64,000 nt of DNA, from positions 1 through 64,000 of IMG/VR virus record IMGVR_UViG_3300038379_000822; one strand, written 5' to 3'. A program made the position numbers and the translations under genes. This stretch comes from a virus. Numbering within the stretch: position 1 is the stretch's first letter; each line of letters begins with the position of its first letter. The notes beneath the pieces were generated by a model that was not told the origin of the DNA, did no database searches, and saw only the letters and a program-made list of their open reading frames with translations. Positions 5,667 to 54,881 of this stretch are shown here, piece by piece.

Positions 5667-5684
5667 GTGCTAGCATGCTAGCAC
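5667..5684. promoter_or_regulatory. Palindrome GTGCTAGCATGCTAGCAC (tandem TGCTAGCA), site 1 of a recurring intergenic motif
   Basis: Perfect 18-bp palindrome in the 68-nt gap between two minus-strand genes (5652/5721). The same core recurs at 9859..9888, 27689..27704, 38535..38544 and 54842..54881. Confidence 0.6.
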
Positions 5685-5720
5685 TCGTGAGTCCAGCGCT
5701 CGCCAGGGCGGCGGATGCGT

Positions 5721-6425
5721 TCATGGCGCGTCCATGTCGCTCACAGGCGCTTCATGGCTCGACGGCGTTCTCCAGTCGATCCATCCATGGTGACGCTGCT
5801 GCGCGCTGTCGTGGCGCCAGACGAAGACGCCGTACTCCGCATTGTCGGTGCCGCCTTCGGTGAAGCTCGGTCGTGGCCGCACCACGTACAGCCGATCGTA
5901 CGGGTGTGCATACCACCATGCCCGCCGCTTCGCTCCGCCGAGCACCGACAGCCGAAGAAGCATCGCGGTCGTGGTGCCACACCCCAGCGCCCGCGCAACG
6001 TGCTCGTGCCAGATGGGCTCCCCGTACTTCCGGCCAGGTACAGTTACAGCGAACGGCGGATTGCCCACGACCAGATTGAACTTGTCCGCGATCCGTTCGC
6101 AAGAGTCACCAAGCAGCTGGGTAGGCTCCGTCGTCAAAAAGTCACCGACCACGGATCGGTCGCACAGGGTAAGACCTGGCACCTGCGGGTTGATGTCGAC
6201 ACCGACGATGAACGATTGTTGGAAGACAGTGCGCAGCGCCTGCACGAACGAGCCACTGCCCACGCTGGGTTCCAGTACCCGCGATGGCGGGTCTGACGCG
6301 AAGAGATCGTCCTTCAGTCGACGCACAATGGCCAGCGTGAGTTCCGGCTGCGTGGTGTAGGCGTCATTGGCACGGCGCTTGTGAGCCGGCTTCTTGCGGC
6401 GTGGGGGCGTGGCTTCGGTGGTCAT
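5721..6425 (-). CDS. N6-adenine DNA methyltransferase (NPPF type)
   Basis: Motif I LEPSVGSGSF and motif IV GNPPF, with a basic N-terminus; 234 aa. Confidence 0.85.
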   Translation of the reverse strand: MTTEATPPRRKKPAHKRRANDAYTTQPELTLAIVRRLKDDLFASDPPSRVLEPSVGSGSFVQALRTVFQQSFIVGVDINPQVPGLTLCDRSVVGDFLTTEPTQLLGDSCERIADKFNLVVGNPPFAVTVPGRKYGEPIWHEHVARALGCGTTTAMLLRLSVLGGAKRRAWWYAHPYDRLYVVRPRPSFTEGGTDNAEYGVFVWRHDSAQQRHHGWIDWRTPSSHEAPVSDMDAP

Positions 6426-6511
6426 CGCTTGTGTCCTACTGCGTTCCAGAGCACCACCAGCACCACGAGCGATGCCAGGGTCAGATGAAAGAGGATGTCG
6501 GACGGTTCCAT
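6422..6511 (-). CDS. Small hydrophobic peptide (29 aa), tentative
   Basis: Hand translation gives MEPSDILFHLTLASLVVLVVLWNAVGHKR. The start shares a base with the upstream stop (TGATG) and the stop overlaps the downstream ATG (ATGA), filling an otherwise empty 85-nt gap. Confidence 0.35.
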   Translation of the reverse strand: MEPSDILFHLTLASLVVLVVLWNAVGHKR

Positions 6512-7020
6512 CAGTTCAGGTTCGTCTTGGACGCCGGCGCTTCGCCGGTCGGCGCCTCCTCGGTTTCCTCATCGGTGAACTTCTTCACGATGAGCACGCT
6601 CGCCTCCTGAAGCGCCGACAACAGGACGCCTTCCGGCTGGCCATTGCCCATGGCTTGCGCCAACCCCGTCATGCAGCGCTGGCCATCCGGCGTCTTGCCG
6701 TGCGGGATGTACACGCTGAACATCCATTGGCCATCCGGTAAGCGCTGCGTCTCCAGGGCGAGCATCGTCACGGCCCGCCTCGGCGTGTTCATGCGCTGCA
6801 CCCATGCGTCGCATGCGTTCGCGATGACGCCGATGTTCGCGAGCGACGCGATCGCGAGCGGCTCCGACTGCTCGGTATCGAGCAGCTCTGGGGCGTCCCG
6901 AACTACATTCCTCTTCTGGCGTCCTCGTGCGCGCCCTGCCTGATAGACCAGGGGGGCCACCAGGACGCAGACCACGAACATGACGATGATGGCGACCAAG
7001 GTCGCCTTGGCTTCCGTCAT
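6511..7020 (-). CDS. Hypothetical membrane-anchored protein (169 aa)
   Basis: N-terminal hydrophobic segment LVAIIVMFVVCVLVAPLVY. ATGA overlap with the upstream gene at 7017..7020. Confidence 0.6.
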   Translation of the reverse strand: MTEAKATLVAIIVMFVVCVLVAPLVYQAGRARGRQKRNVVRDAPELLDTEQSEPLAIASLANIGVIANACDAWVQRMNTPRRAVTMLALETQRLPDGQWMFSVYIPHGKTPDGQRCMTGLAQAMGNGQPEGVLLSALQEASVLIVKKFTDEETEEAPTGEAPASKTNLN

Positions 7021-9858: not shown

Positions 9859-9888
9859 CTGCTGGTGCTAGCATGCTAGCACCAGCAG
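9859..9888. promoter_or_regulatory. 30-bp perfect palindrome CTGCTGGTGCTAGCATGCTAGCACCAGCAG (site 2 of the TGCTAGCA motif)
   Basis: Verified base by base. It fills the 43-nt gap between the minus-strand stop at 9890 and the start at 9846. Confidence 0.7.
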
Positions 9889-9889
9889 G

Positions 9890-10510
9890 TCAACGCTTCT
9901 GGTGGATGGAGATCACGTTGGCGGGCTTGGTGTCGCGCACCTTCGCGTTTTGCTGTGCCGTCGCTGCAACATGTCGCAGGATGAGCACGTGGGCGATGAG
10001 CGCCGCGGACGGCCGCATGCCGTCGATCTCCGCGAGTAGGCCATGGCGCATCGCGGCGCGCACGCACGCCGCTTCGCTGTGCATGCAGGCCTCGTGCATC
10101 AGCGTAGCGGTCGGCTCCTCGAGCTGGTGGCACTGGAGCTGATGCAACGCGACCCGCGCGTCGTACACATGCGGTGACGGGAACTCGACCATCGAGCGAG
10201 GGAGGTGCTCCCACCCCAGCGCCGACAGGTCGAAGGCCGCCGCCGCGCACAGGTGCATCGGCATGCCGTGGTCGGGCCGGTCCGTGGGGACGGTGTACAC
10301 CGCTGGCACGAGAGCCGGAAACTCGCCGTGCACGACCATCCGGCCGTGCGAGAGCATCACCAGCTCCACGTAGTAGTCCGAACCCTTGACGGCCGACTCG
10401 AGCAGCAGCGAGACCCCGGACGTCGGGCGCGGGCGTAGCTTCCTCACGTCGGGCGCGAGGTGATCGATGATCTCCGTCGTGGCGGAGGCTGCGGATACCG
10501 ACTGGAGCAT
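9890..10510 (-). CDS. Hypothetical protein (206 aa)
   Basis: ATG 10510 (MLQSVSAAS...) shares a base with the methyltransferase stop (TGATG). The upstream part of the track ORF is Arg-rich shadow. Confidence 0.6.
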   Translation of the reverse strand: MLQSVSAASATTEIIDHLAPDVRKLRPRPTSGVSLLLESAVKGSDYYVELVMLSHGRMVVHGEFPALVPAVYTVPTDRPDHGMPMHLCAAAAFDLSALGWEHLPRSMVEFPSPHVYDARVALHQLQCHQLEEPTATLMHEACMHSEAACVRAAMRHGLLAEIDGMRPSAALIAHVLILRHVAATAQQNAKVRDTKPANVISIHQKR

Positions 10511-11286
10511 CAGCGCATGATCCTGACGAGGGTGGCGCCGACTTCCGTGCCGGAGCCACGGAACGTGCCCGGTTCGATGTCCCAGATGTCGACGAGGAAG
10601 CCGCGTGCGCGGGCGTCCTCGATGAAGTTCGTGAACGCCTTGCGTTGGCGGTTGGGCGCCATCAGCGCCACGAGCCTCACCGATGACACGACCGGCCCGC
10701 GCTCGAGCTGTCGCAAGAAGGCATGCTGGACGTGCTTCACGTCTTGGTTCCGCGTCCACGGCGGATTCATCACGATACGCGTGAAACCGTGACCTTCGGA
10801 CGCTTGCGGACAGCTCAGGAAGTCGCCGTGTTGCAAGAAGTGGCACCCCTTGTCGAGCAGGTGCTGACAGTTCGCAGGGTCGAGCTCGCAGACGAAGACC
10901 TTGCGGGCGCCCTCTTCACGGCACGCATCGACTAGCGCGCCACGCCCCGCGCTCGGTTCGAGCACGACGTGGCTATAGACATCCGCCAGCTTCGCCATCC
11001 TCCGTGCGAGCTCGGGCGGCGTGTAGAACTGCTGCAGCTCCTTCTTCACGTTCGTGCTCTTGCCCGTGGCAAGCGCCATCCCGAGGCGCTCTCGTGGGTC
11101 CGTCCCGAAGACATGCGCGGCTCGCGAGCGATTCCACTTGCCGCCGGCGTCGGTCAGCACCTTGTTCACCGCCACGTAGAGCGGCCTCGGTAGCTGCTCC
11201 GGAGGCAGCTTCACCTCGCGCTCGCCGATGATGCTTCGCTGAAGCACAGCCATCACCTCGGGAGCGATCGGCGTCTTGGACTTCAT
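10510..11286 (-). CDS. DNA methyltransferase (N6-adenine/N4-cytosine class, NPPW motif)
   Basis: QFYTPPELA, motif I LEPSAGRGAL and motif IV MNPPW. ATG 11286 overlaps the upstream stop (ATGA). Confidence 0.8.
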   Translation of the reverse strand: MKSKTPIAPEVMAVLQRSIIGEREVKLPPEQLPRPLYVAVNKVLTDAGGKWNRSRAAHVFGTDPRERLGMALATGKSTNVKKELQQFYTPPELARRMAKLADVYSHVVLEPSAGRGALVDACREEGARKVFVCELDPANCQHLLDKGCHFLQHGDFLSCPQASEGHGFTRIVMNPPWTRNQDVKHVQHAFLRQLERGPVVSSVRLVALMAPNRQRKAFTNFIEDARARGFLVDIWDIEPGTFRGSGTEVGATLVRIMR

Positions 11287-12044
11287 GCGTGCTGTTCCTT
11301 CTGCAACCTCGGTAGGAGGTCGACGTATGCCTCTGGCGCGTAGGCGAGTTGCTCGAAGCTCGTGCCGTGGGCGCTGGTCGCGTTGGTGTCGCGCGTCCTC
11401 CGGCAGCCGCACCGCATGCAGCACTCATCCACGACGATGCCGCCATACGTGGCCCGAACCCCCGGGTTCTCTGCGTTGCCACCGACGATCGCGAGCGGGC
11501 GCTGCCAGTCATGACCATCGTCCGCGGCGCAGGGTGGCTCGACCGGGTCGAGTACGACCGTGGTGCTCAGCTCCTCATCGGTCTCGCCGCAGTGGACGCT
11601 GACCTCGATTGCCCAAGACCGCAGCAGGTCGACCTCATCGTCTTCGGTCTCTGCCTCGTACTCGTAGTTGGCACGCGTGCCCCCCCGCGTCGCGAGCTCG
11701 AGCGCCTCTTCGGGCGAGCTGGCAGTGACGATCCAGCACCCGTCGGTATCGGTGGCGTCCCACGACCGCGGACAGTCGCTGCCGGCCAGGGCTCGCAGCG
11801 CGCGGTCCACTGCCGCATCGGCAACGTCCCATACGGCGAGGGCCGCATCTCTTCGGTTCAGGAACTCGACGTAGCGAGGGTGCTCCTCGGTGAGCTCGCC
11901 AGCTTCCTGCAGCATTTCCTCGACCGGATCCCACTCGTTCTCACAGCAGTCGATCGCATGTTGCGCCATCGCGCGCTCTGCTTCCGCCCGTACGACGGCG
12001 GCACGTAGCGGATGGATCACGGGCGTCGGGGTCTCTTCAGTCAT
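11283..12044 (-). CDS. Hypothetical protein, paralog of 22291..22986 (acidic, C-terminal Cys cluster)
   Basis: Shares SSxEEALExA...ANYE, LDPxxPPC, GHxW, GGxxxNPGV and CxxCGC with the plus-strand ORF 22291..22986. Confidence 0.7.
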   Translation of the reverse strand: MTEETPTPVIHPLRAAVVRAEAERAMAQHAIDCCENEWDPVEEMLQEAGELTEEHPRYVEFLNRRDAALAVWDVADAAVDRALRALAGSDCPRSWDATDTDGCWIVTASSPEEALELATRGGTRANYEYEAETEDDEVDLLRSWAIEVSVHCGETDEELSTTVVLDPVEPPCAADDGHDWQRPLAIVGGNAENPGVRATYGGIVVDECCMRCGCRRTRDTNATSAHGTSFEQLAYAPEAYVDLLPRLQKEQHA

Positions 12045-13282
12045 GATGATGGCTCTCCGGTAGCGATGGCGTCGACGACAGCTTGTGCCCCCGACGCCTG
12101 GGATAGATCGCCGTCGCTGACGTAAGTGTATCGCTCGGCATGGCGCCGCAGCGGATGGCCCTCCGACATGTAGGCACCGACACCTACCGAATAGAGACGG
12201 ATGCTGCGGAGCTTCAGCTCAGCCATGAAGTCGGCGAAGGGATGACCGTAGAGATCGTCGCTGTCGCCGTCCGTGATGCACACGATATCGGCGTTGTGCA
12301 CTCCCACATGCTCCCAGGCTCCGATCGCATCGGCCGCAACGCGCAGTGCCGATAGTGTCGCCGTGCCGCCATCCAGGAAGCACGCCTGCGCGTCGCGCAG
12401 AGCTTGTTGATCGCCGCGACGCAACTCGCGTTCCATGGCGAGCGTGCTGTAGTGGACGAGCTTGACCGGTCGCCGGTCGTCCCAAGCAATCTCGGTGAGC
12501 GCCGTCATGCACGCTTTCGCCCAAACATTGCGCGACCAGGTGCCGCCGCCCATCGAGCCCGACTCGTCGATCACGATGACGAGCGCCCCACGGCCACGGC
12601 GTTCGAAGCCCGCCACATCGTATTGCTCGGCGCGGCGATCCATGATGCGAGCTTGCAGTTCGGCTCGAGGCGCGCCGCCGAGAGCCCACAAAGCGAGTTC
12701 GTCCGCCGTCAGGCGCGGCACATCGCCTCCCTGGTGGATGCCCACGATCTCCTCGGGGATGTCGGGGGTGCGCGCACGCACGCGCCCCTTGAGCACCTCG
12801 CGCATGGCACCAGCGAGGTCGGCAATCGGCTTCATCTGTTCGCGAGCGGGTTGCGCCTTCGGATCGACGAGGTTGAACGATGCAGCCGTGCTGCAGCAGC
12901 CTCGCTGGTGCTGCTCCGCGCGCCACTCGTAGAACATGCGCCAGCCTGCGCTGGCGGCCTCCTCCCAGTGGTCGTTGTGCTGCGCCAGGTACGATGTGGC
13001 GGCAGTGGTCACCATCTCAGTGACGAGCGCCGCTAGCGCCTCGTTCATGGTGCACTTGACGGACAGATGGAACTCCATCTGCGCCAGGATGGCGGCGGCC
13101 AATGGATCATCCGCGAACGTCTCGCGACCGGAGATCACGTCCCACGTCTGCGCGTAGATGGCGGCGGCGCGCCGGGCGAGAAGAGCCTGGCGCGGCTGCA
13201 CTTCCGCGTACGCCCGCTGAGCGCGACGCTCCTTGGCCATGCGCTTGCGGCGCACGCCGTCGCGAGTCGGGGCCGCAGTCAT
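12041..13282 (-). CDS. von Willebrand factor A (vWA) domain protein
   Basis: MIDAS-type VIVIDESGSMGG and downstream ITDGDSDD. Coupled to the AAA+ gene (ATGA at 13279..13282). Confidence 0.85.
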   Translation of the reverse strand: MTAAPTRDGVRRKRMAKERRAQRAYAEVQPRQALLARRAAAIYAQTWDVISGRETFADDPLAAAILAQMEFHLSVKCTMNEALAALVTEMVTTAATSYLAQHNDHWEEAASAGWRMFYEWRAEQHQRGCCSTAASFNLVDPKAQPAREQMKPIADLAGAMREVLKGRVRARTPDIPEEIVGIHQGGDVPRLTADELALWALGGAPRAELQARIMDRRAEQYDVAGFERRGRGALVIVIDESGSMGGGTWSRNVWAKACMTALTEIAWDDRRPVKLVHYSTLAMERELRRGDQQALRDAQACFLDGGTATLSALRVAADAIGAWEHVGVHNADIVCITDGDSDDLYGHPFADFMAELKLRSIRLYSVGVGAYMSEGHPLRRHAERYTYVSDGDLSQASGAQAVVDAIATGEPSS

Positions 13283-14613
13283 TGATCCTTGGACCCCGAG
13301 GTGATCGACGCCGACGCCACGTAGGCAGACTTGTGCCCGTCACTGGTGAGCACCGAGTCTACGTTGAAGCGACTCACCGTCCACGCGTCGATGATCTCGT
13401 CGAGCAGTCTCGACGAGGAGCGCACCCGGCGCGCGAATCCGCGCATCCGCTCGAGGGTGCGCACAGGCAACTTCGCCTTGTCACCGAAGCGCTCGGTCAT
13501 CGTGACGCCGAAGATCTCGATGCGATTCAAGATCGCGAGCGCATCATCGTGCATACGAGTGAGGTCCAGATGGACCCGGTTCCGGTTGTTGCGGTACCGA
13601 TCATGCAGCTCTTCGACATCGCGCACCAGCTCGTCGGCCTGCACCTCGAACTCTGCAGCAATGGAGCGAGGCAGCAGCTTGAGCACAGCTTCGACGATGG
13701 CCTCCTCGTGCGGAGCGTTCCAGAGGACGTGCCGCAGCACGTCGAGATCGTCGACGTCAGCGTCGGTGAAACCAGCGTACCAGGCTGCGGCCTTCACCAT
13801 CTTGACCGCCTTCCCGATCGTGCGATCGGAGACGGGGCAGCCTCCCTTGCGGCACCCGTCCTGCACCGTGATGAGGTACTCGAGAACGGGATCCGAAACC
13901 CGGACGCGTTCGATCTCCGCGTGTGCAGCCGCGAGCTCATCCACGTGGATGGGTTCCAAGCGCGACCACACGTCGCCCCAGCCGGACTCGATGCCCTGCA
14001 GGAATGCGAGCCGTGGGCCTTTGCCCTCGATGTAGTCGACGGTGTGACCGATCAAGAAGCGATCGCGCAACGCGTTGAGCGAGTCGTCCTCCTGCCACTC
14101 GTTGGATGCGCCGAAGCACGTAATGAGCGGGCTCGTGATGCTGCCCTTCACCGTGCGCTCGTTCAGCCAGGCCAGCATGGCGTTGAGCGTCGAGCCCGAC
14201 GACTTGAACACCTCGTCGGCGAACGCCACGTGCGCCGCCGTAAGATGGTCATCCGTGATCCAGCGCTCCTTGCCGACCATGAGGTCGGGGATGGATCGCG
14301 TGGCGATGACGTCGCTCTCGGTCGTCTGCCGCGTCATCAGGTACTCGGCAAAGATGCCGCCCTTGATCTGCATGCAGATGACACGAGCCAGCGCGCTCTT
14401 GCCGGTGCCGGGCGGCCCGACCCACACGGCGTGCTCACGCGCCGCCAGCGCGAGCTGGCTCGTGTAGATGATGTCATCGCGCTCAACGAAGACGGAGCCG
14501 ATCAGCTCCGCGTTGTGCTGGAGTCGCTCGCGCACAGATCGCGGCTGTGGCGCGGGGGAGATGTCGGGATCGAAGTCGGTCATGGTTCTCTCGTGAGCGG
14601 CTGCGGAACGCAT
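13279..14613 (-). CDS. AAA+ ATPase (MoxR/RavA-like, AAA_5 type)
   Basis: Walker A GPPGTGKS, Walker B VAFADEVFK and sensor region FGASNEW; 444 aa. Confidence 0.9.
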   Translation of the reverse strand: MRSAAAHERTMTDFDPDISPAPQPRSVRERLQHNAELIGSVFVERDDIIYTSQLALAAREHAVWVGPPGTGKSALARVICMQIKGGIFAEYLMTRQTTESDVIATRSIPDLMVGKERWITDDHLTAAHVAFADEVFKSSGSTLNAMLAWLNERTVKGSITSPLITCFGASNEWQEDDSLNALRDRFLIGHTVDYIEGKGPRLAFLQGIESGWGDVWSRLEPIHVDELAAAHAEIERVRVSDPVLEYLITVQDGCRKGGCPVSDRTIGKAVKMVKAAAWYAGFTDADVDDLDVLRHVLWNAPHEEAIVEAVLKLLPRSIAAEFEVQADELVRDVEELHDRYRNNRNRVHLDLTRMHDDALAILNRIEIFGVTMTERFGDKAKLPVRTLERMRGFARRVRSSSRLLDEIIDAWTVSRFNVDSVLTSDGHKSAYVASASITSGSKDQ

Positions 14614-18052: not shown

Positions 18053-18071
18053 AGTTCTCCGTTCGCGGCGA

Positions 18072-27129: not shown

Positions 27130-27679
27130 CCATCGTCTCACCGTTGAGCTACCCGCGCGCCTTGCCGCGGGGCTGTTGCGCTTCACGTCGGACGCAGCGG
27201 ACCACGACATGGTCGTCGTGTCGCTCAAACGCAACAAGCTGCGCTTCGTGGTGCACGCGCACGACGGCTGGAGCGCCGAGATTTCGCAGTTCGTGCACGA
27301 TGACGACCGGCAGCTCTGGTGCGTTCAAGCGCGAACGTTGCGCGCGGCTGTGCGCGCCGTAGGGCTACGTGGCCTCATCGTGCTGAGCGAGGCCCTCAAG
27401 CCCGACCTGCTTCAGGTAGACGCCAGCACGAACAGCGTCGGCGTCGGCATGCTTAGCACCCCGTGGAAGACGATTTCCAAGCAACGCACACAGGAGCCAG
27501 TCACGCACGTCCGCGTCGCCGCGGCTCGCTTGGTGCATGCGGCGGCGCTGGCGAAAGCGATCGGCGCGGAGGCCACGATCGCTCCGGACTTCGCCGGCGC
27601 GGTCTTGATGATGAAGGGGCCCGCTAGTCGCGAAGGCGGCCAACTTTCGCTTCGCATCGAGATGCCGCGAGCCGCTTGA
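27116..27679 (+). CDS. Hypothetical protein (187 aa)
   Basis: ATG 27116 is preceded by GAGGAAGGAA. 14-nt overlap with the previous gene. Confidence 0.6.
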   Translation: MKPSSHRLTVELPARLAAGLLRFTSDAADHDMVVVSLKRNKLRFVVHAHDGWSAEISQFVHDDDRQLWCVQARTLRAAVRAVGLRGLIVLSEALKPDLLQVDASTNSVGVGMLSTPWKTISKQRTQEPVTHVRVAAARLVHAAALAKAIGAEATIAPDFAGAVLMMKGPASREGGQLSLRIEMPRAA

Positions 27680-27688
27680 CGCCCCATC

Positions 27689-27704
27689 TGCTAGCATGCT
27701 AGCA
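27689..27704. promoter_or_regulatory. TGCTAGCATGCTAGCA palindrome (site 3)
   Basis: Perfect 16-bp palindrome followed by CCAG, in the 48-nt gap between plus-strand genes (27679/27728). Confidence 0.6.
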
Positions 27705-27727
27705 CCAGTAACCGCCACGGAGACCCC

Positions 27728-38265: not shown

Positions 38266-38532
38266 ATGTTGCCCGCGAGGGCAACTGACGGCACGACCGG
38301 CCCCAATCACGTCTCTCCGGGCGAGCTCGAGCTTCGGCGACGCGTCCAGCGTGAGCACGAGGCGCTCATGGAGCGCGTGCGGAACCATCCGCACCTCCGC
38401 TTCGGACGCGAGCTGATCTCGTCGCGGGAGTGGCACGAACGCATGGCTGCTGCTCGCGCCACCGGGAAGAGCATCAAGCCGTGCCCGGACTGCCGATGCG
38501 ATGCTTGCCTGGCGCTTTCACGAGCGCGCTGA
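38266..38532 (+). CDS. Hypothetical protein (88 aa), C-terminal CPDCRCDAC
   Basis: Internal ATG 38266 of track ORF 38026..38532. Weak SD. Confidence 0.45.
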   Translation: MLPARATDGTTGPNHVSPGELELRRRVQREHEALMERVRNHPHLRFGRELISSREWHERMAAARATGKSIKPCPDCRCDACLALSRAR

Positions 38533-38534
38533 TT

Positions 38535-38544
38535 GTGCTAGCAC
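38535..38544. promoter_or_regulatory. GTGCTAGCAC palindrome followed by CAGC (site 4, single unit)
   Basis: Lies in the 85-nt gap between plus-strand genes (38532/38618). Same core and CCAGC flank as sites 2 and 3. Confidence 0.45.
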
Positions 38545-41307: not shown

Positions 41308-41652
41308 ATGAGGCTTCTAGTCTGCGGCGGCCGGCGGTTCCGAGAGCGCTCATGGCTCCGCGATGTGCTAGCCGGCCTTCATCGGCAATCGCCGATCACG
41401 TTGCTCATCAACGGCAATGCGCCCGGTGCCGATGCCTTGGCGCTTGAGTGGGCCGCCGAGGAGGGCGTTCCGACCTCCATGCACGCGGCTGCATGGGACC
41501 GCTATGGCGCTGCGGCGGGGCCGCGGCGGAACGCACAGATGCTGCTAGCACGACCAGATATCGTGGTAGCCTTCCCTGGCGGTCGCGGGACCGCCGACAT
41601 GGTTCGCAGGGCGCGCGCGGCGGGCGTGCGTGTCATCGAGCCGATGCGGTGA
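41308..41652 (+). CDS. DUF2493 / SLOG-family (YspA/DprA-like) protein
   Basis: MRLLVCGGRRF...INGNAPGADALALEWA...AAWDRYGAAAGPRRNAQML...VVAFPGGRGTADMV. The frame is open upstream to 41119 (see findings). Confidence 0.75.
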   Translation: MRLLVCGGRRFRERSWLRDVLAGLHRQSPITLLINGNAPGADALALEWAAEEGVPTSMHAAAWDRYGAAAGPRRNAQMLLARPDIVVAFPGGRGTADMVRRARAAGVRVIEPMR

Positions 41653-43879: not shown

Positions 43880-43881
43880 CG

Positions 43882-45126: not shown

Positions 45127-45572
45127 GCAGCACGTCGTGGTCATCGCTAGTGAAGCAGGTGAGTCAGCCAGATGACGCATTGCGCGTGAGCGTCTCGGGC
45201 GAGTTCCGGTTCCACGTCTTTCGCGAAGGTCTGATCGTTGAGGATCAGCACTTCGCCTGCGAAGTGCACTTCTACACGAGCTGCTTCGCGGGGCACAGCT
45301 GCTCCCAGCAGACTAGCATCAGCGAGTGGTTCTACTGTTCGCTCTGGCGCGAACTCTACCCGGAGCCGCTTGCTGTGGGGCGTCAGACGCTGCCTGGGTA
45401 CCGGCTTCGCGACAGCGACATGCTGTTGCAGCTTGCGCAAGGCATTGCCGCACGGCCGGAGGATGTGACGTTCCTGAACGTATGCCTCATCGGGGATCCG
45501 AGTTTCACGCGTGCATTCAAAGAACTCGTTTATGACTGCAGGCGCGAGAACCGGCACGCTCAGCGCACCTGA
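45123..45572 (+). CDS. Hypothetical protein (149 aa), last gene of the rightward block
   Basis: ATGA overlap. Its 3' end overlaps the convergent giant ORF by 13 nt. Confidence 0.6.
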   Translation: MSSTSWSSLVKQVSQPDDALRVSVSGEFRFHVFREGLIVEDQHFACEVHFYTSCFAGHSCSQQTSISEWFYCSLWRELYPEPLAVGRQTLPGYRLRDSDMLLQLAQGIAARPEDVTFLNVCLIGDPSFTRAFKELVYDCRRENRHAQRT

Positions 45573-48500
45573 AGCGCGGCCATCACACGGAACGGCGACG
45601 GCAGCGCGCTCGTCATCTTGACCGCTGCATCCTGCATCGCCGTGAGCGCCGACTCCGTGACGTAGACGTGCGTGTCGGACGGGTTCTTGGTGATGCGCCC
45701 ATCGAAGCCAATCCGGAACAGCTTCGTGCGCGCAGCGCTATCCGCACGATGCTTCAGGAGCACGCGGCGTCCCGGGTTCTCAACCATCTTCTTGCGACGC
45801 GACGCGCGCTCACCCCCTGCGCTGGCGATGACGATGTCCGTCTCTGCGGACCGGCGACGCTCCGCCCGCACGGCTTCGGCTGCCGACCTGCTGATGCGTA
45901 GCGACATGTTCCCGGTCTCCGGGTCGAGCAGCTCCATCACCGACGCTTCTTCCGCGGAGACGCGCGAGATCTCGGCGGCGAAGCTCAGACTGACGGCCAT
46001 CTGCTGAGCGGCGGCCTCGAGCTGAGCCGGAGTAGCTTCCTCGGTCGTGACCTCCTCGCCAGTGAGCAGCTTGCGCACGATGGCTGCCTGCGACGTGAGC
46101 CATAACCGGCGAGCGTTGGCGCCAGCGACGATGGTTCCTCCGATCTCGCGAGCTTGGCGCTCCATCTGCTCGGGCGCAGGGACGACCGTGGCCAGGTACT
46201 GGAGCATCACGCCCCACACGAGCTTGGTGTTGTCGCCCTTGTCCGCGCGGATGCCCTTGCTCTCGCGTCCGGTGGCGACGACGTACTCCCACATCGCTCG
46301 GCATGCGCGCCGCAGGACGAGTTGCGGGAACGGAACATCAAACCGCGCACGAAATCGCTGCTGGGCGCTCTCATCGAGCGTAATCGTGTGCTTCTTCTGA
46401 TCGATCGCGAAGAACGCGGCGTCGAAGAGCGGGCTGTCCGCGAAGATGTTCACCGGACCGGGGTCGCCCTCTGCGAGAGGCACGTAACGATTCAGGTAGG
46501 CGATCACGAGCGGTCGGATATCGCGCCCGGTCTCGCGGCCGCCGAGGTCGGCGTCTTCCGGAAGCGGCAACGCCTTGGCCTCAAAGCCTGCGCGCAGGAG
46601 AGCCACGTTCTCCTTGGTCGCTGCAAGCTGCTCGCGGTACTCGCGCTTCCCCGTGATCCCGTAGCGGCTGACGATGCGCTCGGTGACCTCGGCATCGCCC
46701 GCGAAGAACTGCTTGCTCAGCGCGTTGAGCTCCGCGAGCTTTCGTTGCTCCTCGAGGTAGAAGGTCAGCTCCTTCTCGAGCAGCTCTCGCCGCTTCTCAA
46801 CGCTCTGCTCGGCGAAGGCGACGTTCTTGCGGCGGGTCTCCTTGCGTTCGGAGCTGAGACGCTGCCCCGTGACGCTGGCCAGCCAGCTCGTGAACCGCTT
46901 CCATTCGTCGGCGCTGCGCTTGTAGATGCTGTGCACCGGATCGTCTTCCGCGAACCATACCGGCAGCTCTTCCGCAAACCCCACGCCCGAGCTCGCCGCA
47001 CCGATGAATGCTTCCGCGAAGGCCTCATCGTCCTTGCGATCTTCGACCCCGCGCCCGCGCTTCATCTCCGTCATGTAGCGAGCCGTCACCAAGAAGGTGT
47101 GGGCGTTGAGCTCGAACCACTTGGCGAGCCAGTCGTCGCTGTGTGCCCGCAGTGCCGCGCCGCGCTCGATGGCGGCCTCGTAGGGCATCCACGTGGGCGT
47201 CGGCCGCTTCCGCTTGCGGAAGTACTCGAGCAGCGTCCCGGTGATGTGCGAGAAGGCCCCGAACCATCGCATGAGCCCATACGTGCGACTCGGTTGAGCG
47301 CTGCCTGCCCAGTCGGCGTAGAGCCGATCGAGCGCGTTCAGCAGCGGCGTGTCCTCGGTATCGGGCCAGATCTGCGCTGGGGCAAGCACGGGGAGCGCCG
47401 GGATCTTGATCTTCTTCTTCTCGGTCGAGAAGACCGGATCAGCGAGCACGATGCCGTCATCGGAGACGTGGCTCGCTCGCGCAAAGAAGGGGAGCAGCGT
47501 ATCGACCCCGATGCCGTAGTTCCGGGGCCATGGATCGTAGAACTCGGCCAAGAACGAGTGCTTGTTGTTGTTCAGCTGGTAGAGCTTCTCGCCGCGCGAC
47601 TCGTCGATGACTTCAGCACCAGGGCGCGCGGTCTTGCTCGTCTTGGTCCATTCGATGCGCTCCGCATCATCGGTTCCGAACATGTCGTAAGCCCAGTCCG
47701 GCGACCCGGCACTCACGTCATCGACCGGGCTATGCGGGACCTCGGCCTGCCGGTGCTCGCCGGCATCGAGATCGACAGCCACGATGCGGTCATCGCGATC
47801 GACGATGGCCACACCGCCGGGTCCGGGCTCGACATCGACGGCGCGGAGGGGAACGTCCTCGCCGATCGTGGGCACCACAGGGACCTCCCAGGGGGGAGGG
47901 GCCTCGGCCACGGGCGCGGGCGGAGCGACTGGAGGAGGAGGCTCTGGACGGCGCGGAGCGGCCGCAGCAGGCGACTGCTGCACTTCGACCGCGTAGGTGT
48001 CGATCACCTGCGGCGAAGGCTTTCTGGGAGCGCTTGGCGGCGGCGAAGCCGGTTGCGCTGGAGCAGTCGAGATGCCGGCCCGGGCCGCAATCTTCTCGAT
48101 GTAGGACAGGATCTCGGTCTGACCGGTGAGGCGTTCGGCCGCGCCAATCTCCTCGAGGTAGCCCTCGGTGGTGGTCACCGACTCATGCCCCAAGATCGCC
48201 TGCACCTCCCGCAAGGGCTTGCCGGCCTCGATCATGGCCGTCGCGGCAAAGTGCCGAAGGGCGTGCGGATGCAGTAGCTTCAGCTCATCGTCCGTGAGCC
48301 CAGCATGCAGTCCGAGCCGTCGAAGCCACGCGCGACTCGCGGGGCGCGTCATGCTTCGCCGGTAGTTGAGCTCGGCGTTCGGCTTGAACTCCTGGTACTT
48401 GCCAGCAGCATTCGCTCCCCAGAGCCGCAGCGGAGGGAAGAGTGGAGCATCGGCGTTCACGACGAGTTCGCGTAGGCGTTCGTCCGCGCGAGGGCGGCGC

Positions 48501-49669
48501 GAATCCACTTCCAATGCCGCCTGAAACTGCAGGAGCGCTTGGTAGGCGACCGAGGGATACGGCAGGATCATGCGCTTCCCGCCCTTGCGCAGCAGCAGCA
48601 CACGCGGCTCCGTGCCCGTCGCATCGAGCCAACCAGGCCACTGAACCCCTTGCCGAGGCGGTGGCTCCGCTCGGCGCAGATTCAGCGTCTCGCTGATGCG
48701 CGAGCCGAGCAGGATCAGGAAGAGGAACATCGCCCGATCACGCAGGCCTTCGGTCGACTTCACGGTATCGAGGTAGGCCAAGATCTTCGGCACGATCTCG
48801 GGTGGCATGCGCTTCATGGCGCGTCGCGACTTCCGTTCACTGGAGAAGCCGCTCGAGAGCCGGCTCTTCAGTCCATCGAAGATGTCGTACTTCACGAGCG
48901 GCGTATCGGGTCCGGTGTTCTCTCCGCGCCCGAGCACCTTCCAGAAACTGGAGAGCGCCGACACCCGCTGCAGGATGGATGCGCGACTCAGGCCGCGCGG
49001 CTGCGGGATCATGTACGTGTAGATGTCGCGGATGGGCTTCCCATCGATGACCGAGGTGGAGAAGATCGCCATGCCGCGATGCTGAGCACGCAACTGCGCG
49101 ATGGTCGGAGTGCGGATGAGCAGACGATGCAGCACCATGCGCCCGAGTCGTGCGGCGAGCTGCTCACCGTTCAGCGCATCGTCGGCTTTGCGCTCCGCGT
49201 CCGTGAACATCCCCTCGATGTCCCGTTGCGTGGCGCGCCCTCCCAGCTTGGTAACGATCTCGAAGACGCGTCGGCGGATGGGATCGTCGCTGTCTTTCGC
49301 GCGCTCGGCGACCAGAGAGAAGGGTCGGTTCGCGAGCCAGTTGACGTACTCCTCGGCATCGGAGCGAAGCACCTGGTGTGGCGCCACCGGGCGTCCATAC
49401 TTGACCGCCAGCCACTCGAAGAACTCCGACAGCGCGCGCGAGTAGGCGATCTTGGTGTGGGGCGAGCGCTGACCGATGTAGCTCTGCCAGGTGTCGCCGC
49501 TGCTGCTCGAGGGCTGCCCGAAGAACGCGTCGAGAGCGGCAAGGCACCGCCGGGCTTCGTCCCGGTTGCCGAAGGCGTCGACCCAGGCCTTCACCGATGC
49601 CTCGTCGCGTTTCCCGCGGAAGATGGCGAGCTCGGGGCGGTTCTTGGTCAGCGCGGTCGATCGGGGCAT
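45560..49669 (-). CDS. Giant tyrosine recombinase/integrase fusion (1369 aa): N-terminal ~520-aa integrase, Pro/Ala linker, ~800-aa C-terminal region of unknown function
   Basis: Integrase signatures: SAM-like AYSRALSEFFEWL...AEEYVNWL, LLGSRISETLNLR, HPHALRHFAATAMIEAG and ILGHESVTTTEGYL. The single uninterrupted ORF has balanced composition throughout. Confidence 0.85.
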   Translation of the reverse strand: MPRSTALTKNRPELAIFRGKRDEASVKAWVDAFGNRDEARRCLAALDAFFGQPSSSSGDTWQSYIGQRSPHTKIAYSRALSEFFEWLAVKYGRPVAPHQVLRSDAEEYVNWLANRPFSLVAERAKDSDDPIRRRVFEIVTKLGGRATQRDIEGMFTDAERKADDALNGEQLAARLGRMVLHRLLIRTPTIAQLRAQHRGMAIFSTSVIDGKPIRDIYTYMIPQPRGLSRASILQRVSALSSFWKVLGRGENTGPDTPLVKYDIFDGLKSRLSSGFSSERKSRRAMKRMPPEIVPKILAYLDTVKSTEGLRDRAMFLFLILLGSRISETLNLRRAEPPPRQGVQWPGWLDATGTEPRVLLLRKGGKRMILPYPSVAYQALLQFQAALEVDSRRPRADERLRELVVNADAPLFPPLRLWGANAAGKYQEFKPNAELNYRRSMTRPASRAWLRRLGLHAGLTDDELKLLHPHALRHFAATAMIEAGKPLREVQAILGHESVTTTEGYLEEIGAAERLTGQTEILSYIEKIAARAGISTAPAQPASPPPSAPRKPSPQVIDTYAVEVQQSPAAAAPRRPEPPPPVAPPAPVAEAPPPWEVPVVPTIGEDVPLRAVDVEPGPGGVAIVDRDDRIVAVDLDAGEHRQAEVPHSPVDDVSAGSPDWAYDMFGTDDAERIEWTKTSKTARPGAEVIDESRGEKLYQLNNNKHSFLAEFYDPWPRNYGIGVDTLLPFFARASHVSDDGIVLADPVFSTEKKKIKIPALPVLAPAQIWPDTEDTPLLNALDRLYADWAGSAQPSRTYGLMRWFGAFSHITGTLLEYFRKRKRPTPTWMPYEAAIERGAALRAHSDDWLAKWFELNAHTFLVTARYMTEMKRGRGVEDRKDDEAFAEAFIGAASSGVGFAEELPVWFAEDDPVHSIYKRSADEWKRFTSWLASVTGQRLSSERKETRRKNVAFAEQSVEKRRELLEKELTFYLEEQRKLAELNALSKQFFAGDAEVTERIVSRYGITGKREYREQLAATKENVALLRAGFEAKALPLPEDADLGGRETGRDIRPLVIAYLNRYVPLAEGDPGPVNIFADSPLFDAAFFAIDQKKHTITLDESAQQRFRARFDVPFPQLVLRRACRAMWEYVVATGRESKGIRADKGDNTKLVWGVMLQYLATVVPAPEQMERQAREIGGTIVAGANARRLWLTSQAAIVRKLLTGEEVTTEEATPAQLEAAAQQMAVSLSFAAEISRVSAEEASVMELLDPETGNMSLRISRSAAEAVRAERRRSAETDIVIASAGGERASRRKKMVENPGRRVLLKHRADSAARTKLFRIGFDGRITKNPSDTHVYVTESALTAMQDAAVKMTSALPSPFRVMAALQVR

Positions 49670-49737: not shown

Positions 49738-50316
49738 ATGCGCCGTGAAGTGCCGATGACCGACGACCAGATCAACCTCTACCGACTCTTCGGCATCGAG
49801 GCGTCCACCATCCTCCCGAACCGCCTCTACATGGGCTCCATCCCGCCCAAGGGGCCTCTCGTCGAACGCGCTGGCTTCACGCATCTGGTGCTCTGCGCCG
49901 AGGAGTACCAACCCCGGAGCACCGAGTTCTCGCCAGGTCTCAAGGTTCTGCACGTTCCGATGCGTGACGACGGGCAGCCGCTTGCGGCCAACGCCGAACG
50001 GCAGATCGAACACGCTGCTGCCGCCGTCGCTGACTACATCGTGCGGGGAGCGCGCGTGCTCGTCACGTGCGCCGCCGGACGCAACCGCTCCGGCATCATC
50101 TGCGCCTTCACGCTCGCTCGAGCCACTCGGATCTCGCCCTGGCGTGCCGGGCTGCGCATCCGTGGCCTGCGTGTGACGCCTGATGGGGCACCCGCGATGA
50201 CGAATCCCGCCTTCAATGCCTTCGCGCTGCGACGCTCCACCCACGATGTCGACGCGGTGCGTTCGTCGCGACGTGCACGACGTGCTCATGACTTCGGCGC
50301 CATCCTACCTAGATAG
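49738..50316 (+). CDS. Cys-based dual-specificity/tyrosine protein phosphatase
   Basis: Active-site loop VLVTCAAGRNRSG (CX5R-S). Upstream VPMRDDG (candidate general-acid loop). Alternative ATG 49756. Confidence 0.8.
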   Translation: MRREVPMTDDQINLYRLFGIEASTILPNRLYMGSIPPKGPLVERAGFTHLVLCAEEYQPRSTEFSPGLKVLHVPMRDDGQPLAANAERQIEHAAAAVADYIVRGARVLVTCAAGRNRSGIICAFTLARATRISPWRAGLRIRGLRVTPDGAPAMTNPAFNAFALRRSTHDVDAVRSSRRARRAHDFGAILPR

Positions 50317-50960
50317 TACCGCGTCTCGTCGTCCCACATCTCGCGCGCAGCGATGAGCTTCATCGATCCTGACTTCGCGAACTTCTGCTCCATCGTTTCG
50401 ACGACCAGCCCGCGCAGAATCCCCGTCACAGCGATGTTGAGCGCCTGTGCTCGGCGCCGCAGCGCGCGATAGGCCCCCGCCGTGACCAGCGCGCGCTCCA
50501 CGTATGGGTACTTCGTCGTGCCGTCGACCCGGTGAACACCTGGATCAATCGCGGAGTACTCCCGCCCGCGATACACCCAGCCCTCCGTCATGTGGCGCGG
50601 CTCCCACGTGCCCATCAAGTACAGGTGCACGATGCTTCGCAGGAGCACACTGCCGTCAACACCGCGATGCATGGCGTACGCCTTCCACTCATCGAAGATC
50701 ACGCGTGGAAACCTGATCTCGACCTGCGGATGCTTGCTCCCAGCCTTCTTGTCACCCAACACTGGTTGCAGTCCCGCTTCCTGGGCTCGGCGTTTCCGGA
50801 GTTCGAATGCATCGCGCAGCGCATCGGGCGCCACGCCCAGACGTTGAGCCAACACCACGAGCTGTTGCTCTTCCAACACTCGCGCAGTGACGGCCGACAC
50901 GCTCAGCTTGTCGATCAACCAGGCTCGGAATCCGTCGAGTGCGTCGCGCCTACCGCCCAT
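50286..50960 (-). CDS. Hypothetical protein (224 aa)
   Basis: Minus-strand ORF whose 3' end overlaps the convergent phosphatase gene by 31 nt. Confidence 0.65.
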   Translation of the reverse strand: MGGRRDALDGFRAWLIDKLSVSAVTARVLEEQQLVVLAQRLGVAPDALRDAFELRKRRAQEAGLQPVLGDKKAGSKHPQVEIRFPRVIFDEWKAYAMHRGVDGSVLLRSIVHLYLMGTWEPRHMTEGWVYRGREYSAIDPGVHRVDGTTKYPYVERALVTAGAYRALRRRAQALNIAVTGILRGLVVETMEQKFAKSGSMKLIAAREMWDDETRYYLGRMAPKS

Positions 50961-52909: not shown

Positions 52910-54258
52910 GGGCCAAATCCCACGAGTTCATCGGGGATGCACCCGATCTGCTTCAGGCAAGCCAGCGCCGTCGCGCCCACCGTCGGCATGCCGAAGCGCT
53001 GGTAGAGCCCCATCGGGTGGATGCGCTCGACCGGTGGCTCCACACGCCGCATGGCGGCTTGAAGCATCTGCACATCGCCATCTTCCTGGCCGCCGGCGCA
53101 GTCCATCCAGGTCGCTTCGCCCCAGCCGTATCCAGGATGCACGGGCTCCGGCGTCGCCATGTCGATGTCGTAGGTACCGCTCCGCAGTCGTCCATGCCGC
53201 AGCGCCTCGGGCACGTAATCATCGTACGCCTGATCGGGAGGGTAGATGAGCATGTTGCCCGCGCAGACCGCGTCGAACGCCGGGACATCCCACGCCTCAC
53301 CATGCGAAGCGCTGACGTAGATGTTGTTTTGTTCGTGCAGCTGCACGATCTCGTCCGCCGTCATCACACCGACGATGAGCCGCACTCGCGCATCGAAGTT
53401 CTTCGGCGTCCATCCATTCGCCTTGATCGCAGCATCGTGCTCGAGCATGGTCGGGATCGCCGTCTGGAACTTGTAGCCATCCCACTCGCCCCACTCGTGA
53501 GTCTTCACGATGAGCGATGCCCGCTCGGACGGCCTGAACGCGCGCAAGAACCCCCTGATGATGGCCAGTTGGTTCTTGCGCGGCTCCCACTTGCCGATGT
53601 GGTAGAAGCGCTTGCCGTCGGGCACCGGCTTGAAGCCTCGCGGTTGCGCTACCGCACTCGCCCCGCGCGATGGCGAGTACGGCATCGGCACGATGTGCAC
53701 GCGCTGCACGCCAGCGCGGCGAAACACGTCCGCGTTGAAGCGACATGGCACCCAGGTCTGACCGAGACGATTCAAGGTCTCGACCATCTCGTCGGGCATG
53801 TCCAGCCGCTCCCACGAGGTATACACGATGGTGTGCGCCAGCACATGCTTGACCGCTTGCAGCGGCATCTGGCGTAGGTTCGGGTGCATCACCGCTTGCC
53901 GCAGCGATTCGGCGCTATGCAACACCACGTGGTGAATGGCGCAGAGCGTCTTGGCCGCCGACACGCGGGCCAGATGCAGCATGTCGTGCGCCACCTGTGG
54001 GTCCAAGTCATCATCGAGCACGAGATGCCCGGCCGTGCTCGACTTGAGGCGAACCGGCATCCCAACCGTCGCCAGAGCCTGGGCGATCGCACGCGAGTGC
54101 GCTGCCATGCCGTCGTTCGAAGGTCGCCAGTGTGCCGAGAGCTCGATGCACCACGGCAAGTGCGCCTCCGCCCCCACCGCAGCCTTCTCGGTGGAGAAGT
54201 CCGTGCGATCGGCTTCTGCGTTACCCTGAAACTGCGCCAGCTGGTCGGCCAGCGTCAT
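52906..54258 (-). CDS. Glycosyltransferase-like protein (GT-B-like, 450 aa)
   Basis: YHIGKWEPRKNQ and YVSASHGEAWDVPAFDAVCAGNMLIY. ATG 54258 overlaps the upstream stop (ATGA); the track start at 54291 is also possible. Confidence 0.7.
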   Translation of the reverse strand: MTLADQLAQFQGNAEADRTDFSTEKAAVGAEAHLPWCIELSAHWRPSNDGMAAHSRAIAQALATVGMPVRLKSSTAGHLVLDDDLDPQVAHDMLHLARVSAAKTLCAIHHVVLHSAESLRQAVMHPNLRQMPLQAVKHVLAHTIVYTSWERLDMPDEMVETLNRLGQTWVPCRFNADVFRRAGVQRVHIVPMPYSPSRGASAVAQPRGFKPVPDGKRFYHIGKWEPRKNQLAIIRGFLRAFRPSERASLIVKTHEWGEWDGYKFQTAIPTMLEHDAAIKANGWTPKNFDARVRLIVGVMTADEIVQLHEQNNIYVSASHGEAWDVPAFDAVCAGNMLIYPPDQAYDDYVPEALRHGRLRSGTYDIDMATPEPVHPGYGWGEATWMDCAGGQEDGDVQMLQAAMRRVEPPVERIHPMGLYQRFGMPTVGATALACLKQIGCIPDELVGFGP

Positions 54259-54833
54259 CGCTCCATCACCCGGCTCTCGGCGATCTGGCACGCCCAGCCG
54301 CAGCCCTCGGCATCGCAGCGCAGGATGGAGTCGACGGTCACCTCGCCCGCGACGAGCACCACCGTGCTCACGCCCATCGCGGTGACTCGCTTCGGGCCAG
54401 CTTTGCGCTGATCGATGTGGAACTTCCGATGCGACTCGCGCACCAAGATCTGCGAGCTATCCTGCGGGCGCCCCATCGCGATGCATCGCGGGCATACGAA
54501 GACGAAGAACATGTCGAGCTTCGTTGGATCGCTCGGATGCGGTAGATGCGAGATCTCGCAGATGCAGTCCTGATCCGTCTTGACGTAGTAGAGAACCAAC
54601 TTCGGCGACATCGGCGACAGCTGGCGCGTCTGCATGCCGTTGACCTCGACGCCCTTCGGTCCGGCCGTGAGCCCTGCCTTCGCCTTCGCCGCTGCGATCA
54701 TCTGGTCGTCGTACGCTCGACGCGCTTCGGCATCCGCGCGACTCTTCGCCCAGTTACGGTCCTGCGACGACGACGTCGTGCCTCCGCGCACGAGGATCGT
54801 AGGCAGGGGAGCACGCTTCGGTTGTTCCGCCAT
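54255..54833 (-). CDS. Hypothetical Cys-containing protein (192 aa)
   Basis: First gene after the motif cluster at 54842..54881. FVCPRC and CDAEGCGWAC. Confidence 0.65.
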   Translation of the reverse strand: MAEQPKRAPLPTILVRGGTTSSSQDRNWAKSRADAEARRAYDDQMIAAAKAKAGLTAGPKGVEVNGMQTRQLSPMSPKLVLYYVKTDQDCICEISHLPHPSDPTKLDMFFVFVCPRCIAMGRPQDSSQILVRESHRKFHIDQRKAGPKRVTAMGVSTVVLVAGEVTVDSILRCDAEGCGWACQIAESRVMER

Positions 54834-54841
54834 GAAGCATC

Positions 54842-54881
54842 GTGCTACCCGAAAGTGCTAGCACCGTCAAGGTGCTAGCAC
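54842..54881. promoter_or_regulatory. Cluster of GTGCTAGCAC palindromes (site 5): two perfect units plus one degenerate
   Basis: GTGCTAGCAC occurs at 54855..54864 and 54872..54881, with GTGCTAC at 54842..54848. The cluster fills the 49-nt gap between minus-strand genes. Confidence 0.55.

Follow-up and report, generated by a model that had tools for sequence, protein, structure and literature searches.

Palindromic boxes at putative promoters of non-structural operons in an uncultivated high-G+C phage

The 8-bp palindrome TGCTAGCA recurs in a 64,000-nt stretch of viral DNA (positions 1 to 64,000 of IMG/VR record IMGVR_UViG_3300038379_000822), referred to here as the window. We favour the view that these boxes form the core of a class of sigma-70-type phage promoters and double as the operator of a dimeric regulator encoded by the phage. 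That the motif loci are promoters is likely; that a dedicated regulator binds them is a reading towards which the sequence tips the balance slightly. The observations that carry this view, and that can be made directly, are the statistics of the motif, the geometry and orientation of its −35 and −10 elements, and the conservation of the arrangement at orthologous positions.

In the window we counted 10 copies of TGCTAGCA, against 0.55 expected from dinucleotide-preserving shuffles, none of 100 of which reached 10. The longer form GTGCTAGCAC has three exact copies and eight one-mismatch matches, six of which are overlapping units of three tandem sites. The window has a G+C content of 65.7%, and CTAG, the centre of the motif, is about five-fold rarer in it than expected (42 seen against about 207 from composition); 12 of the 42 lie in the motif sites. 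An initial annotation made from the sequence alone had listed three tandem or extended palindromes, three single GTGCTAGCAC units and a degenerate GTGCTAC at 54842-54848, and all of these coordinates and sequences proved correct, the perfect palindromes spanning 18 bp at 5667-5684, 30 bp at 9859-9888 and 16 bp at 27689-27704. Together they make up five loci, S1 to S5, which are resolved as follows, with a single further copy inside a gene.

S1, 5667..5684, minus strand: 18-bp palindrome GTGCTAGCATGCTAGCAC, made up of two TGCTAGCA boxes that abut; the proposed −10 is the last TAGCAC, 5672-5667.
S1 −35-like hexamer TGGACT, 5690..5695, minus strand: 17 bp upstream of TAGCAC.
S2, 9859..9888, minus strand: 30-bp perfect palindrome with two abutting boxes; proposed −10 TAGCAC 9870-9865.
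S2 −35 hexamer TTGACC, 9888..9893, minus strand: 17-bp spacer; overlaps the TGA stop of the upstream gene.
S3, 27676..27705, plus strand: −35 TTGACG 27676-27681; 18-bp spacer containing the first box; TGC-TAGCAC 27697-27705.
S4, 38517..38544, plus strand: −35-like TTCACG 38517-38522; 16-bp spacer; single GTGCTAGCAC 38535-38544.
S5, 54842..54887, minus strand, in gene direction: GCTAGC 54887-54882; unit a, GTGCTAGCAC, 54881-54872; −35 TTGACG 54870-54865.
S5, continued, minus strand: unit b, GTGCTAGCAC, 54864-54855, within the 17-bp spacer; half unit GGGTAGCAC, with TAGCAC 54847-54842 at −10.
Single TGCTAGCA, 41543..41550, no strand assigned: inside the YspA/SLOG-family gene 41308-41652; lacks a −35 partner.

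The motif is concentrated between genes. On a gene map that we made from codon usage, with two start codons corrected, 91.35% of the window is coding; nine of the 10 exact copies, representing five of the six loci, fall in the 8.7% that is non-coding, so that the equal frequency in coding DNA that would have spoken against a regulatory element was not seen in the window. The tenth copy, at 41543..41550, is probably incidental. It had been reported together with a site at 41365 as a near-match within a gene; both lie in the same YspA/SLOG gene, the one at 41365 matching at seven of eight positions and the one at 41543 being exact. The claim that the sites occupy the few gaps in otherwise overlapping operons holds for the location of the five loci but not for the scarcity of gaps, as the window has about 30 gaps of at least 15 bp and the motif is in five. 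Nor is a CCAGC flank shared by three sites as proposed: it is exact only at 9859-9888 (both arms) and 38535-38544, and reads CCAGT at 27689-27704 and CCGGC at 5667-5684.

Two of the five placements, 5667-5684 and 38535-38544, are intergenic only if later start codons are chosen. At the former the later start is favoured by the G+C content at third codon positions (GC3) of the disputed N-terminal extension (0.54 against 0.80), by the JGI gene call and by a Shine-Dalgarno-like sequence ahead of it. The GC3 difference at the latter is smaller (0.67 against 0.74); here too the later start has a Shine-Dalgarno-like sequence ahead of it, and the shorter product matches its PHROG from residue 8 onwards. 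The gene downstream of S4 probably starts at 38618.

Further loci, designated A and B, are found on a companion contig, L009, a 24.7-kb IMG/VR contig from JGI metagenome 3300043259, in which, as in Logan run SRR12687280, the window sequence itself occurs. Because L009 comes from the same metagenome, is similar to the window in G+C content and has the same first 127 nt, we infer that it is part of the same or of a co-occurring genome. It carries two further copies of the 18-mer, one in a co-directional gap and the other (12883-12910) within a 28-bp perfect palindrome in a divergent gap adjoining YqaJ and RecT genes.

Across the seven loci, five in the window and two on L009, the boxes stand at a fixed distance from a −35 element. 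A TTGAC-like sequence (at least four of five positions matching) lies 16-18 bp upstream of the last TAGCAC at six of the seven (p = 1.2e-8), and exact TTGAC at this distance is found at three (p = 3.8e-8), given background rates measured on the window itself of 0.035 for a four-of-five match and 0.001 for an exact one. The exact cases are S2 (TTGACC, 17-bp spacer), S3 (TTGACG, 18 bp) and S5 (TTGACG, 17 bp), and the remaining hexamers are TTGATT at L009 locus B (17 bp), TGGACT at S1 (17 bp) and TTCACG at S4 (16 bp). The arrangement is orientation-specific: none of six antisense orientations tested at the window loci has a TTGAC-like match at 16-18 bp, and the pattern TTGACN-N16-18-TANNN[TC] matches three times on both strands of the window, each time at a motif locus and in the direction of the gene. 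At S5, the part of the degenerate third unit that survives is exactly TAGCAC, 17 bp from TTGACG; this half unit has GGG where full boxes have TGC, and the extra units of the locus lie at about −25 and −42.

Every full box has TGC ahead of TAGCA, and the upstream copy in tandem sites reads TGC-TAGCAT. Extended −10 promoters of the sigma-70 type take the form TGnTATAAT; the motif loci share with them TG at −15/−14, TA at −12/−11, a TTGACN −35 element 17 bp away and a start codon that follows the hexamer by 7-9 nt, and differ from them in that the proximal hexamer ends in C rather than T and in that the element is a perfect palindrome and is duplicated. The start codons are close. They lie 1, 7, 8, 14, 18, 22 and 73 nt from the last box, within 1-22 nt at six loci, and the closest are not preceded by a ribosome-binding sequence, a pattern expected of mRNAs with short leaders or none; leaderless mRNAs are familiar from high-G+C bacteria. 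The 93-aa gene at S1 has its ATG (5652) 14 nt past the box, S2 is followed after 18 nt by a GTG start (9846) with GAGGA ahead of it, S3 after 22 nt by an ATG (27728) with GGAG ahead of it, and the ATG at S5 (54833) is 8 nt past the half unit.

The same geometry is found ahead of orthologous genes in relatives with 24-41% identity between the orthologous proteins. Their layout is TTGACN, 17-18 bp, TGC-TA(G/T)C, about 7-9 nt and ATG, often with GCTAGC-like boxes 8-11 bp apart. At the junction orthologous to S5, ahead of homologs of a 192-aa protein, it is present in contigs L046, L048, L052, L055, L058/59, L061 and L066. L046 has TTGACC-N17-TGC-TAGCCG with ATG 7 nt on, and L055 has TTGACA-N18-TAGCCA and two GCTAGC boxes 11 bp apart; GCTAGC, GCTATC and GATAGC follow one another in L061 with 9-bp phasing, GTGCTGTCAC and then TGCTATCAG in L058/59, and L048 has the near-palindrome GCGTGCTATCACGC. 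L066 is the closest relative by synteny, with protein identities to the window of 34-49% for the majority of the genes they share, and carries three and two GCTAGC boxes with 9-bp phasing in two orthologous gaps, with TTGACG ahead of the first. For the gene behind S3 one ortholog was available for comparison, in L067, where TTGACC-N20-TAGCGC is followed by ATG 6 nt on.

In most relatives examined, TGC-TA(G/T)C is kept at the orthologous promoter. TGCTA[GT]C is rare in the 20-kb structural segments of the relatives, and its sole copy in L048 and in L058/59 is the orthologous promoter; when perfect palindromes and 8-mers were surveyed in the structural segments of 21 relatives, no recurring palindrome of this kind turned up. 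One TTGAC(C/G)-N16/17-TA(G/A)nnT site lies about 3.5 kb upstream of the gene for a capsid-like protein in almost all the relatives and in this genome itself (position ~6000-6900 of L042-L061; 6429-6456 in L063, approximately window-equivalent 66.7 kb). This site appears to be a conserved promoter of the virion operon, without boxes and distinct from the box-bearing class. The lineage clearly uses TTGACN-type promoters.

These features would also be expected if the loci were promoters and nothing more, that is, extended −10 elements for the host RNA polymerase whose tandem copies are duplicated −10s giving two starts or firing in two directions. The identity between loci would then reflect the spread by recombination of a short promoter cassette, as has been proposed for promoter and stem-loop cassettes of T4-type phages. 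The −35/extended −10 geometry and the short distances to start codons fit this explanation, as do the upstream copy TGC-TAGCAT, which is a good extended −10, the presence of one tandem site in a divergent gap (L009 12883-12910) and the failure to find a regulator in the proteins scanned. We nevertheless consider it unlikely, because several properties of the boxes go beyond promoter recognition. The 16-18 bp that are identical across five loci have unrelated flanks, and the identity stops exactly at the ends of the dyad, unlike that of a decaying duplicated cassette. The downstream unit always ends in C, which keeps the 10-bp dyad GTGCTAGCAC, where T would give a better −10. Two loci lengthen the dyad, each with a sequence of its own (CTGCTGG/CCAGCAG in the window, GCGCGG/CCGCGC on L009). 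All seven loci have perfect palindromes of 10-30 bp with invariant spacer bases, the 8-bp units are in immediate tandem (TGCTAGCATGCTAGCA) at five loci, and the boxes of relatives are 9-11 bp apart. S5, L066 and L061 have further phased boxes in and upstream of the spacer, and such copies around and upstream of the −35 element serve no polymerase recognition. As RNA polymerase needs neither dyad symmetry nor invariant spacer bases nor extra copies of the box, we infer that a regulator reads them.

The converse explanation, that a repressor sits on intergenic palindromes and blocks elongation, or initiation from elsewhere, at boxes that have no promoter function, strikes us as slightly less probable still. 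It has precedents in the stoperators of mycobacteriophage L5 and the conserved inverted repeats of phiC31, and it would account for the dyad symmetry, the several dispersed copies and their position in short gaps between co-directional genes. It leaves unexplained the orientation-specific TTGAC at 16-18 bp (p about 1e-8), the missing ribosome-binding sequences ahead of starts 1-14 nt away, and the fact that the relatives L046, L052 and L067, whose one box is not palindromic, retain the complete −35/spacer/TGC-TA arrangement. Stoperators in the strict sense were rejected: those of mycobacteriophages are asymmetric 13-14 bp sites oriented with transcription, whereas the core here is a perfect palindrome with its asymmetry confined to the flanks. 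Each of the two explanations, promoter alone and operator alone, thus leaves part of the evidence unexplained.

Under the combined promoter and operator reading, the box-bearing promoters would drive the non-structural operons of the phage. Each would consist of a TTGACN −35 element and, after a spacer of 16-18 bp, a box in which TGC-TAGCA(C) acts as the extended −10, and transcription would start a few bases past the box to give leaderless mRNAs or mRNAs with very short leaders. As operators, the boxes would each bind one regulator dimer per 8-10 bp palindrome, with neighbouring dimers 8-11 bp apart. The regulator would most likely be a repressor, repression being the simplest expectation because the boxes overlap the −10 element. 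About seven operons would in this way come under one switch, leaving the virion operon on a separate, ordinary promoter. In this scheme, where transcription starts, that a protein binds and in which direction it regulates are deduced from the observations above. The initial annotation had proposed a dedicated operator or promoter element for a dimeric phage regulator. The first part of that proposal has gained support from the promoter geometry, the close starts and the conservation in distant relatives, although it was not specific enough; the second is in keeping with the dyad symmetry, the invariant spacer positions and the phased extra copies, but no DNA-binding protein was identified to go with it.

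Several points weigh against the combined reading. Sigma-70 normally needs T at −7 of the −10 hexamer (TAnnnT), and the promoter-proximal hexamer TAGCAC has C there; the hexamers of relatives (TAGCCG, TAGCCA, TAGCGC and TATCAC) also lack the T. A scan for promoters and terminators based on the E. coli consensus returned almost nothing at the motif loci because it demands this T. L009 locus A does not keep the register, its TTGACA lying at 22 bp and its annotated GTG start 1 nt past the box; in L066 and L062, TAGCGC abuts the annotated ATG. Every transcription start has been placed from sequence, the gene map that underlies the intergenic placement is our own, and L009 belongs to the genome by our assignment. 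On the side of the regulator, no helix-turn-helix (HTH), ribbon-helix-helix (RHH) or other DNA-binding protein was recognised by Pfam or PHROGs among 124 proteins (94 from the window and 30 from L009 and the L063 extension), which represent ~88 kb of a genome that is about 25-45 kb longer. Two AlphaFold models were unusable, with predicted local distance difference test (pLDDT) scores of 43 (a 224-aa protein) and 37.

Relaxed Pfam searches with 10 small proteins and profile searches of the PDB gave no match to a regulator either. Two proteins deserve mention as candidates.

192-aa protein, first gene after S5, 54255..54833, minus strand: CxxC...C...GC motifs, zinc-ribbon.
224-aa protein, 50286..50960, minus strand: two strand-helix-helix segments reminiscent of RHH; the model, at pLDDT 43, is too low in confidence to trust.

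In the relatives that have the orthologous promoter, a homolog of the 192-aa protein is encoded directly behind it, and the protein, for which we obtained no family, PDB or structural assignment, is a speculative candidate for an autoregulator. The 224-aa protein, which has no Pfam or PDB match, is a weak candidate for the regulator; the one full-length homolog that could be detected is encoded by L066, a contig that has GCTAGC repeats as well.

Hairpins acting at the RNA level, in termination, attenuation, processing or mRNA stabilisation at the ends of transcription units, were the other possibility raised by the initial annotation, and they fare poorly. Some loci do fold strongly (−26.9 kcal/mol at S2, −25.6 at S5 and −25.2 at L009 locus B, with z-scores of −3.5 to −4.7), and at two loci the stem is extended with different sequences. 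However, stability across the loci ranges from none to −27 kcal/mol: S3 (−6.7 kcal/mol) folds no better than shuffled sequence, S1 is weak, and the single unit of S4 forms no stable hairpin, its 34-nt stretch folding like shuffled sequence. It is the sequence itself that is invariant and not just the pairing, and a stable stem 1-8 nt ahead of a start codon would keep a read-through transcript from being translated. No palindrome is followed by a U-tract, which, with the range of stabilities, led us to reject intrinsic terminators. The only motif locus with a match in the terminator scan was S5, overlapped by one at 54874-54887 on the strand opposite to the genes, in a region where 14 matches were listed and 8.2 expected; an Rfam search found no match. 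Elsewhere, in two gaps of the structural region (59193-59289 and 63154-63255), the phage has ordinary G+C-rich hairpins with T-rich tails; they follow highly conserved structural genes and are probably intrinsic terminators. Processing hairpins of the RNase III type, as in T7, comprise about two helical turns of double-stranded RNA and were rejected for stems that are 6-13 bp here and absent at S4. Altogether an RNA-level function is improbable.

We regard it as very improbable, too, that the boxes are dispersed parS sites, or sites resembling the OB sites of KorB, for a ParB-family protein that might silence nearby promoters, as KorB does on RK2 and SopB on N15. The 16-bp perfect palindromes are dispersed over the genome as such sites would be, and in unrelated IMG/VR phages TGCTAGCA arrays adjoin parA (L013) and a gene for a fusion of a ParB N-terminal domain with a methylase (L012). 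Against this, there is no match to the ParA or ParB families in about 88 kb of genome, the sites go together with −35 hexamers and start codons, and those other phages were found by the motif search itself and so are an ascertainment-biased sample. The remaining candidates can be dealt with briefly. Methylation or restriction targets (GCTAGC or CTAG) of phage methyltransferases or of a host system, kept for epigenetic reasons, would suit the methyltransferase genes near S1 and S2 (3795-5156, 5721-6425 and 10510-11286) and the avoidance of CTAG elsewhere, but they explain neither the promoter geometry nor the tandem phasing nor the intergenic restriction, and we give this idea almost no credence. 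Repetitive extragenic palindromic (REP) elements, which are imperfect palindromes with a GTAG head served by an IS200-like transposase (RAYT), were rejected because the palindromes here are perfect and lack the head, the only TnpB-like open reading frame (ORF) adjoins a CRISPR array, and no Y1 transposase was found. A short hairpin promoter of the N4 type, which a giant RNA polymerase from the virion reads, was rejected in view of the host-type −35 element and of the proteins scanned, which include no RNA polymerase family.

The palindromic boxes are thus most likely a familiar kind of phage control element, a promoter/operator regulon, and not a new mechanism. Dyad-symmetric operators overlap the early promoters in lambda-type modules, and phiC31 has a conserved inverted repeat of ~17 bp at many intergenic sites across its genome; the present phage differs from both in sequence, in how many sites there are and in regulator family. 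The KorA operators (OA) of the IncP-1 plasmids RK2/RP4 are likewise a short perfect palindrome repeated at several promoters of one mobile element: a 12-bp symmetric operator, GTTTAGCTAAAC, is present at seven RP4 promoters, where a small dimeric repressor exerts coordinated control of several operons (PMC2665229). KorA, however, belongs to a plasmid, is a known HTH regulator and has no abutting tandem boxes, whereas in this phage the box itself would supply the −10 element and the regulator is deduced. The immediate tandem layout of TGCTAGCA-TGCTAGCA at five loci is that of the met-boxes, 8-bp palindromes bound by one MetJ dimer per box with neighbours 8 bp apart (PMC3413123), although MetJ is a host metabolic RHH repressor with another box sequence, and the boxes of the phage relatives are 9-11 bp apart. 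Cluster O mycobacteriophages provide another phage-specific dispersed palindrome with invariant arms, the 17-bp TGTTCGGNNNCCGAACA, which has more than 30 copies largely in or near intergenic gaps, coexists with SigA-like promoters giving leaderless mRNAs and has no known binding protein (PMC4351075). Its copies are not tied to −35/−10 elements, unlike the ~7 loci described here, each of which lies within a putative promoter.

The window is part of an uncultivated high-G+C phage with a genome of roughly 110-140 kb; its source contig is 111.6 kb long. The 9 kb of structural genes past the end of the window contain no copies of the motif, which can therefore be assigned to the non-structural operons, with their genes for DNA methyltransferases, ThyX, glycosyltransferases and recombination functions and their many ORFans. 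The capsid-like protein of 322 aa (62185-63153) has no Pfam family; it has ~600 homologs of ~50% identity on contigs of 95-180 kb classed as viral by IMG/VR, and the lineage is a large, uncharacterised group of high-G+C phages. Many small proteins with C-terminal transmembrane helices are encoded around the capsid-like gene (55-61 kb). A megablast of 7 kb of the window against GenBank phages gave no matches. Searches for related loci with a 399-aa protein and with the capsid-like protein found nothing, and a ThyX-based search for an ortholog of S4 returned 68 loci, none of them of this lineage. Exact scans with the 16-mer and 18-mer of viral, genome and metagenome collections gave chance-level unrelated matches, with L009 as the sole exception, and a literature search for the motif string gave only cloning primers. 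In the Pirellulaceae metagenome-assembled genome JALSIV01 (L024, L025 and L027), a 26-bp palindrome, GAGAGTGCTAGCATGCTAGCACTCTC, lies ~45-65 nt from the ends of three contigs; the 18-mer there is inside a dispersed, assembly-breaking repeat at contig ends and was set aside as unrelated to the phage.

Arrays of the TGCTAGCA box are also found in unrelated IMG/VR phages of 38-54% G+C, at L012 5483-5594, L013 3530-3914 and L011 10300-10660 / L003. L012 has a triple tandem TGCTAGCA adjoining the ParB_N-methylase fusion gene, the repeats of L013 come just after the parA gene, and L011/L003 have runs of GTGCTAC and GTGCTAA half sites between HTH-like genes; some arrays are also near genes that resemble those for small terminase subunits, as judged by reading of the ORF sequences only, with no Pfam match. 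By BLASTP, L003/L011, L012 and L013 share no small protein with this phage. Given the neighbouring parA, ParB_N-methylase and terminase-small-like genes, these arrays probably have other functions, and it seems that the short palindrome has been taken up time and again, probably in different roles.

The window has several other features. A CRISPR array at ~1646-2490 consists of 12 repeats of 36 nt (GCTCCACCGGCTCTCCGTTGGAGTAGTCGTTGCGAC, plus strand) with spacers of ~36-40 nt and adjoins a TnpB/Cas12f-like ORF (129 to ~1640, minus strand; Pfam Cas12f1-like_TNB), so that 129-2735 has the appearance of a compact type V CRISPR-Cas locus carried by the phage. The cassette lies between perfect 132-bp direct repeats (1-132 and 2604-2735), and L009 begins with the same sequence. 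The tyrosine-recombinase (Phage_integrase) domain of a 1369-aa protein (45560-49669, minus strand) is confined to residues ~439-505; the protein, which is of unusual size for an integrase in being so large, is kept in L066 at 37-43% identity. Five paralogs encoded at 17162-18749 and 24078-26168 have the common motif EGMCA..E..A.LAGE.HSD.P.C.CPVLA, and three of them have alanine/asparagine-rich repeat tails (ANAAANAA...). An ISL3-family transposase (42139-43590, minus strand) is inserted between phage genes, where the Logan assembly breaks, and at 12041-14613 (minus strand) a phage operon pairs the genes for a MoxR-like AAA+ ATPase (Pfam bpMoxR) and a VWA-domain protein. A tRNA-Val (CAC) at 19171-19253 (plus strand) marks the switch between leftward and rightward gene blocks; as it overlaps the ORF called at 19054-19713, that ORF is doubtful.

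The result leaves general principles unchanged. It would give a first map of transcription units for a widespread uncultivated phage lineage, in which the box-bearing promoter class would serve the operons for DNA modification, nucleotide metabolism, recombination and glycosyltransferases. There is also a small chance that the boxes, phased 8-11 bp apart and overlapping an extended −10 without T at −7, are read by a new factor conserved in the lineage, an activator or sigma appropriator, perhaps the 192-aa zinc-ribbon protein, on which the promoters depend in place of simple repression; such dependence on a phage factor, if true, would amount to a new promoter class and a new regulator family in a widespread uncultivated lineage (contigs of 95-180 kb). 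The boxes themselves provide a concrete bait sequence for the regulator and would be a compact case of a −10 element and an operator contained in the same 8 bp.

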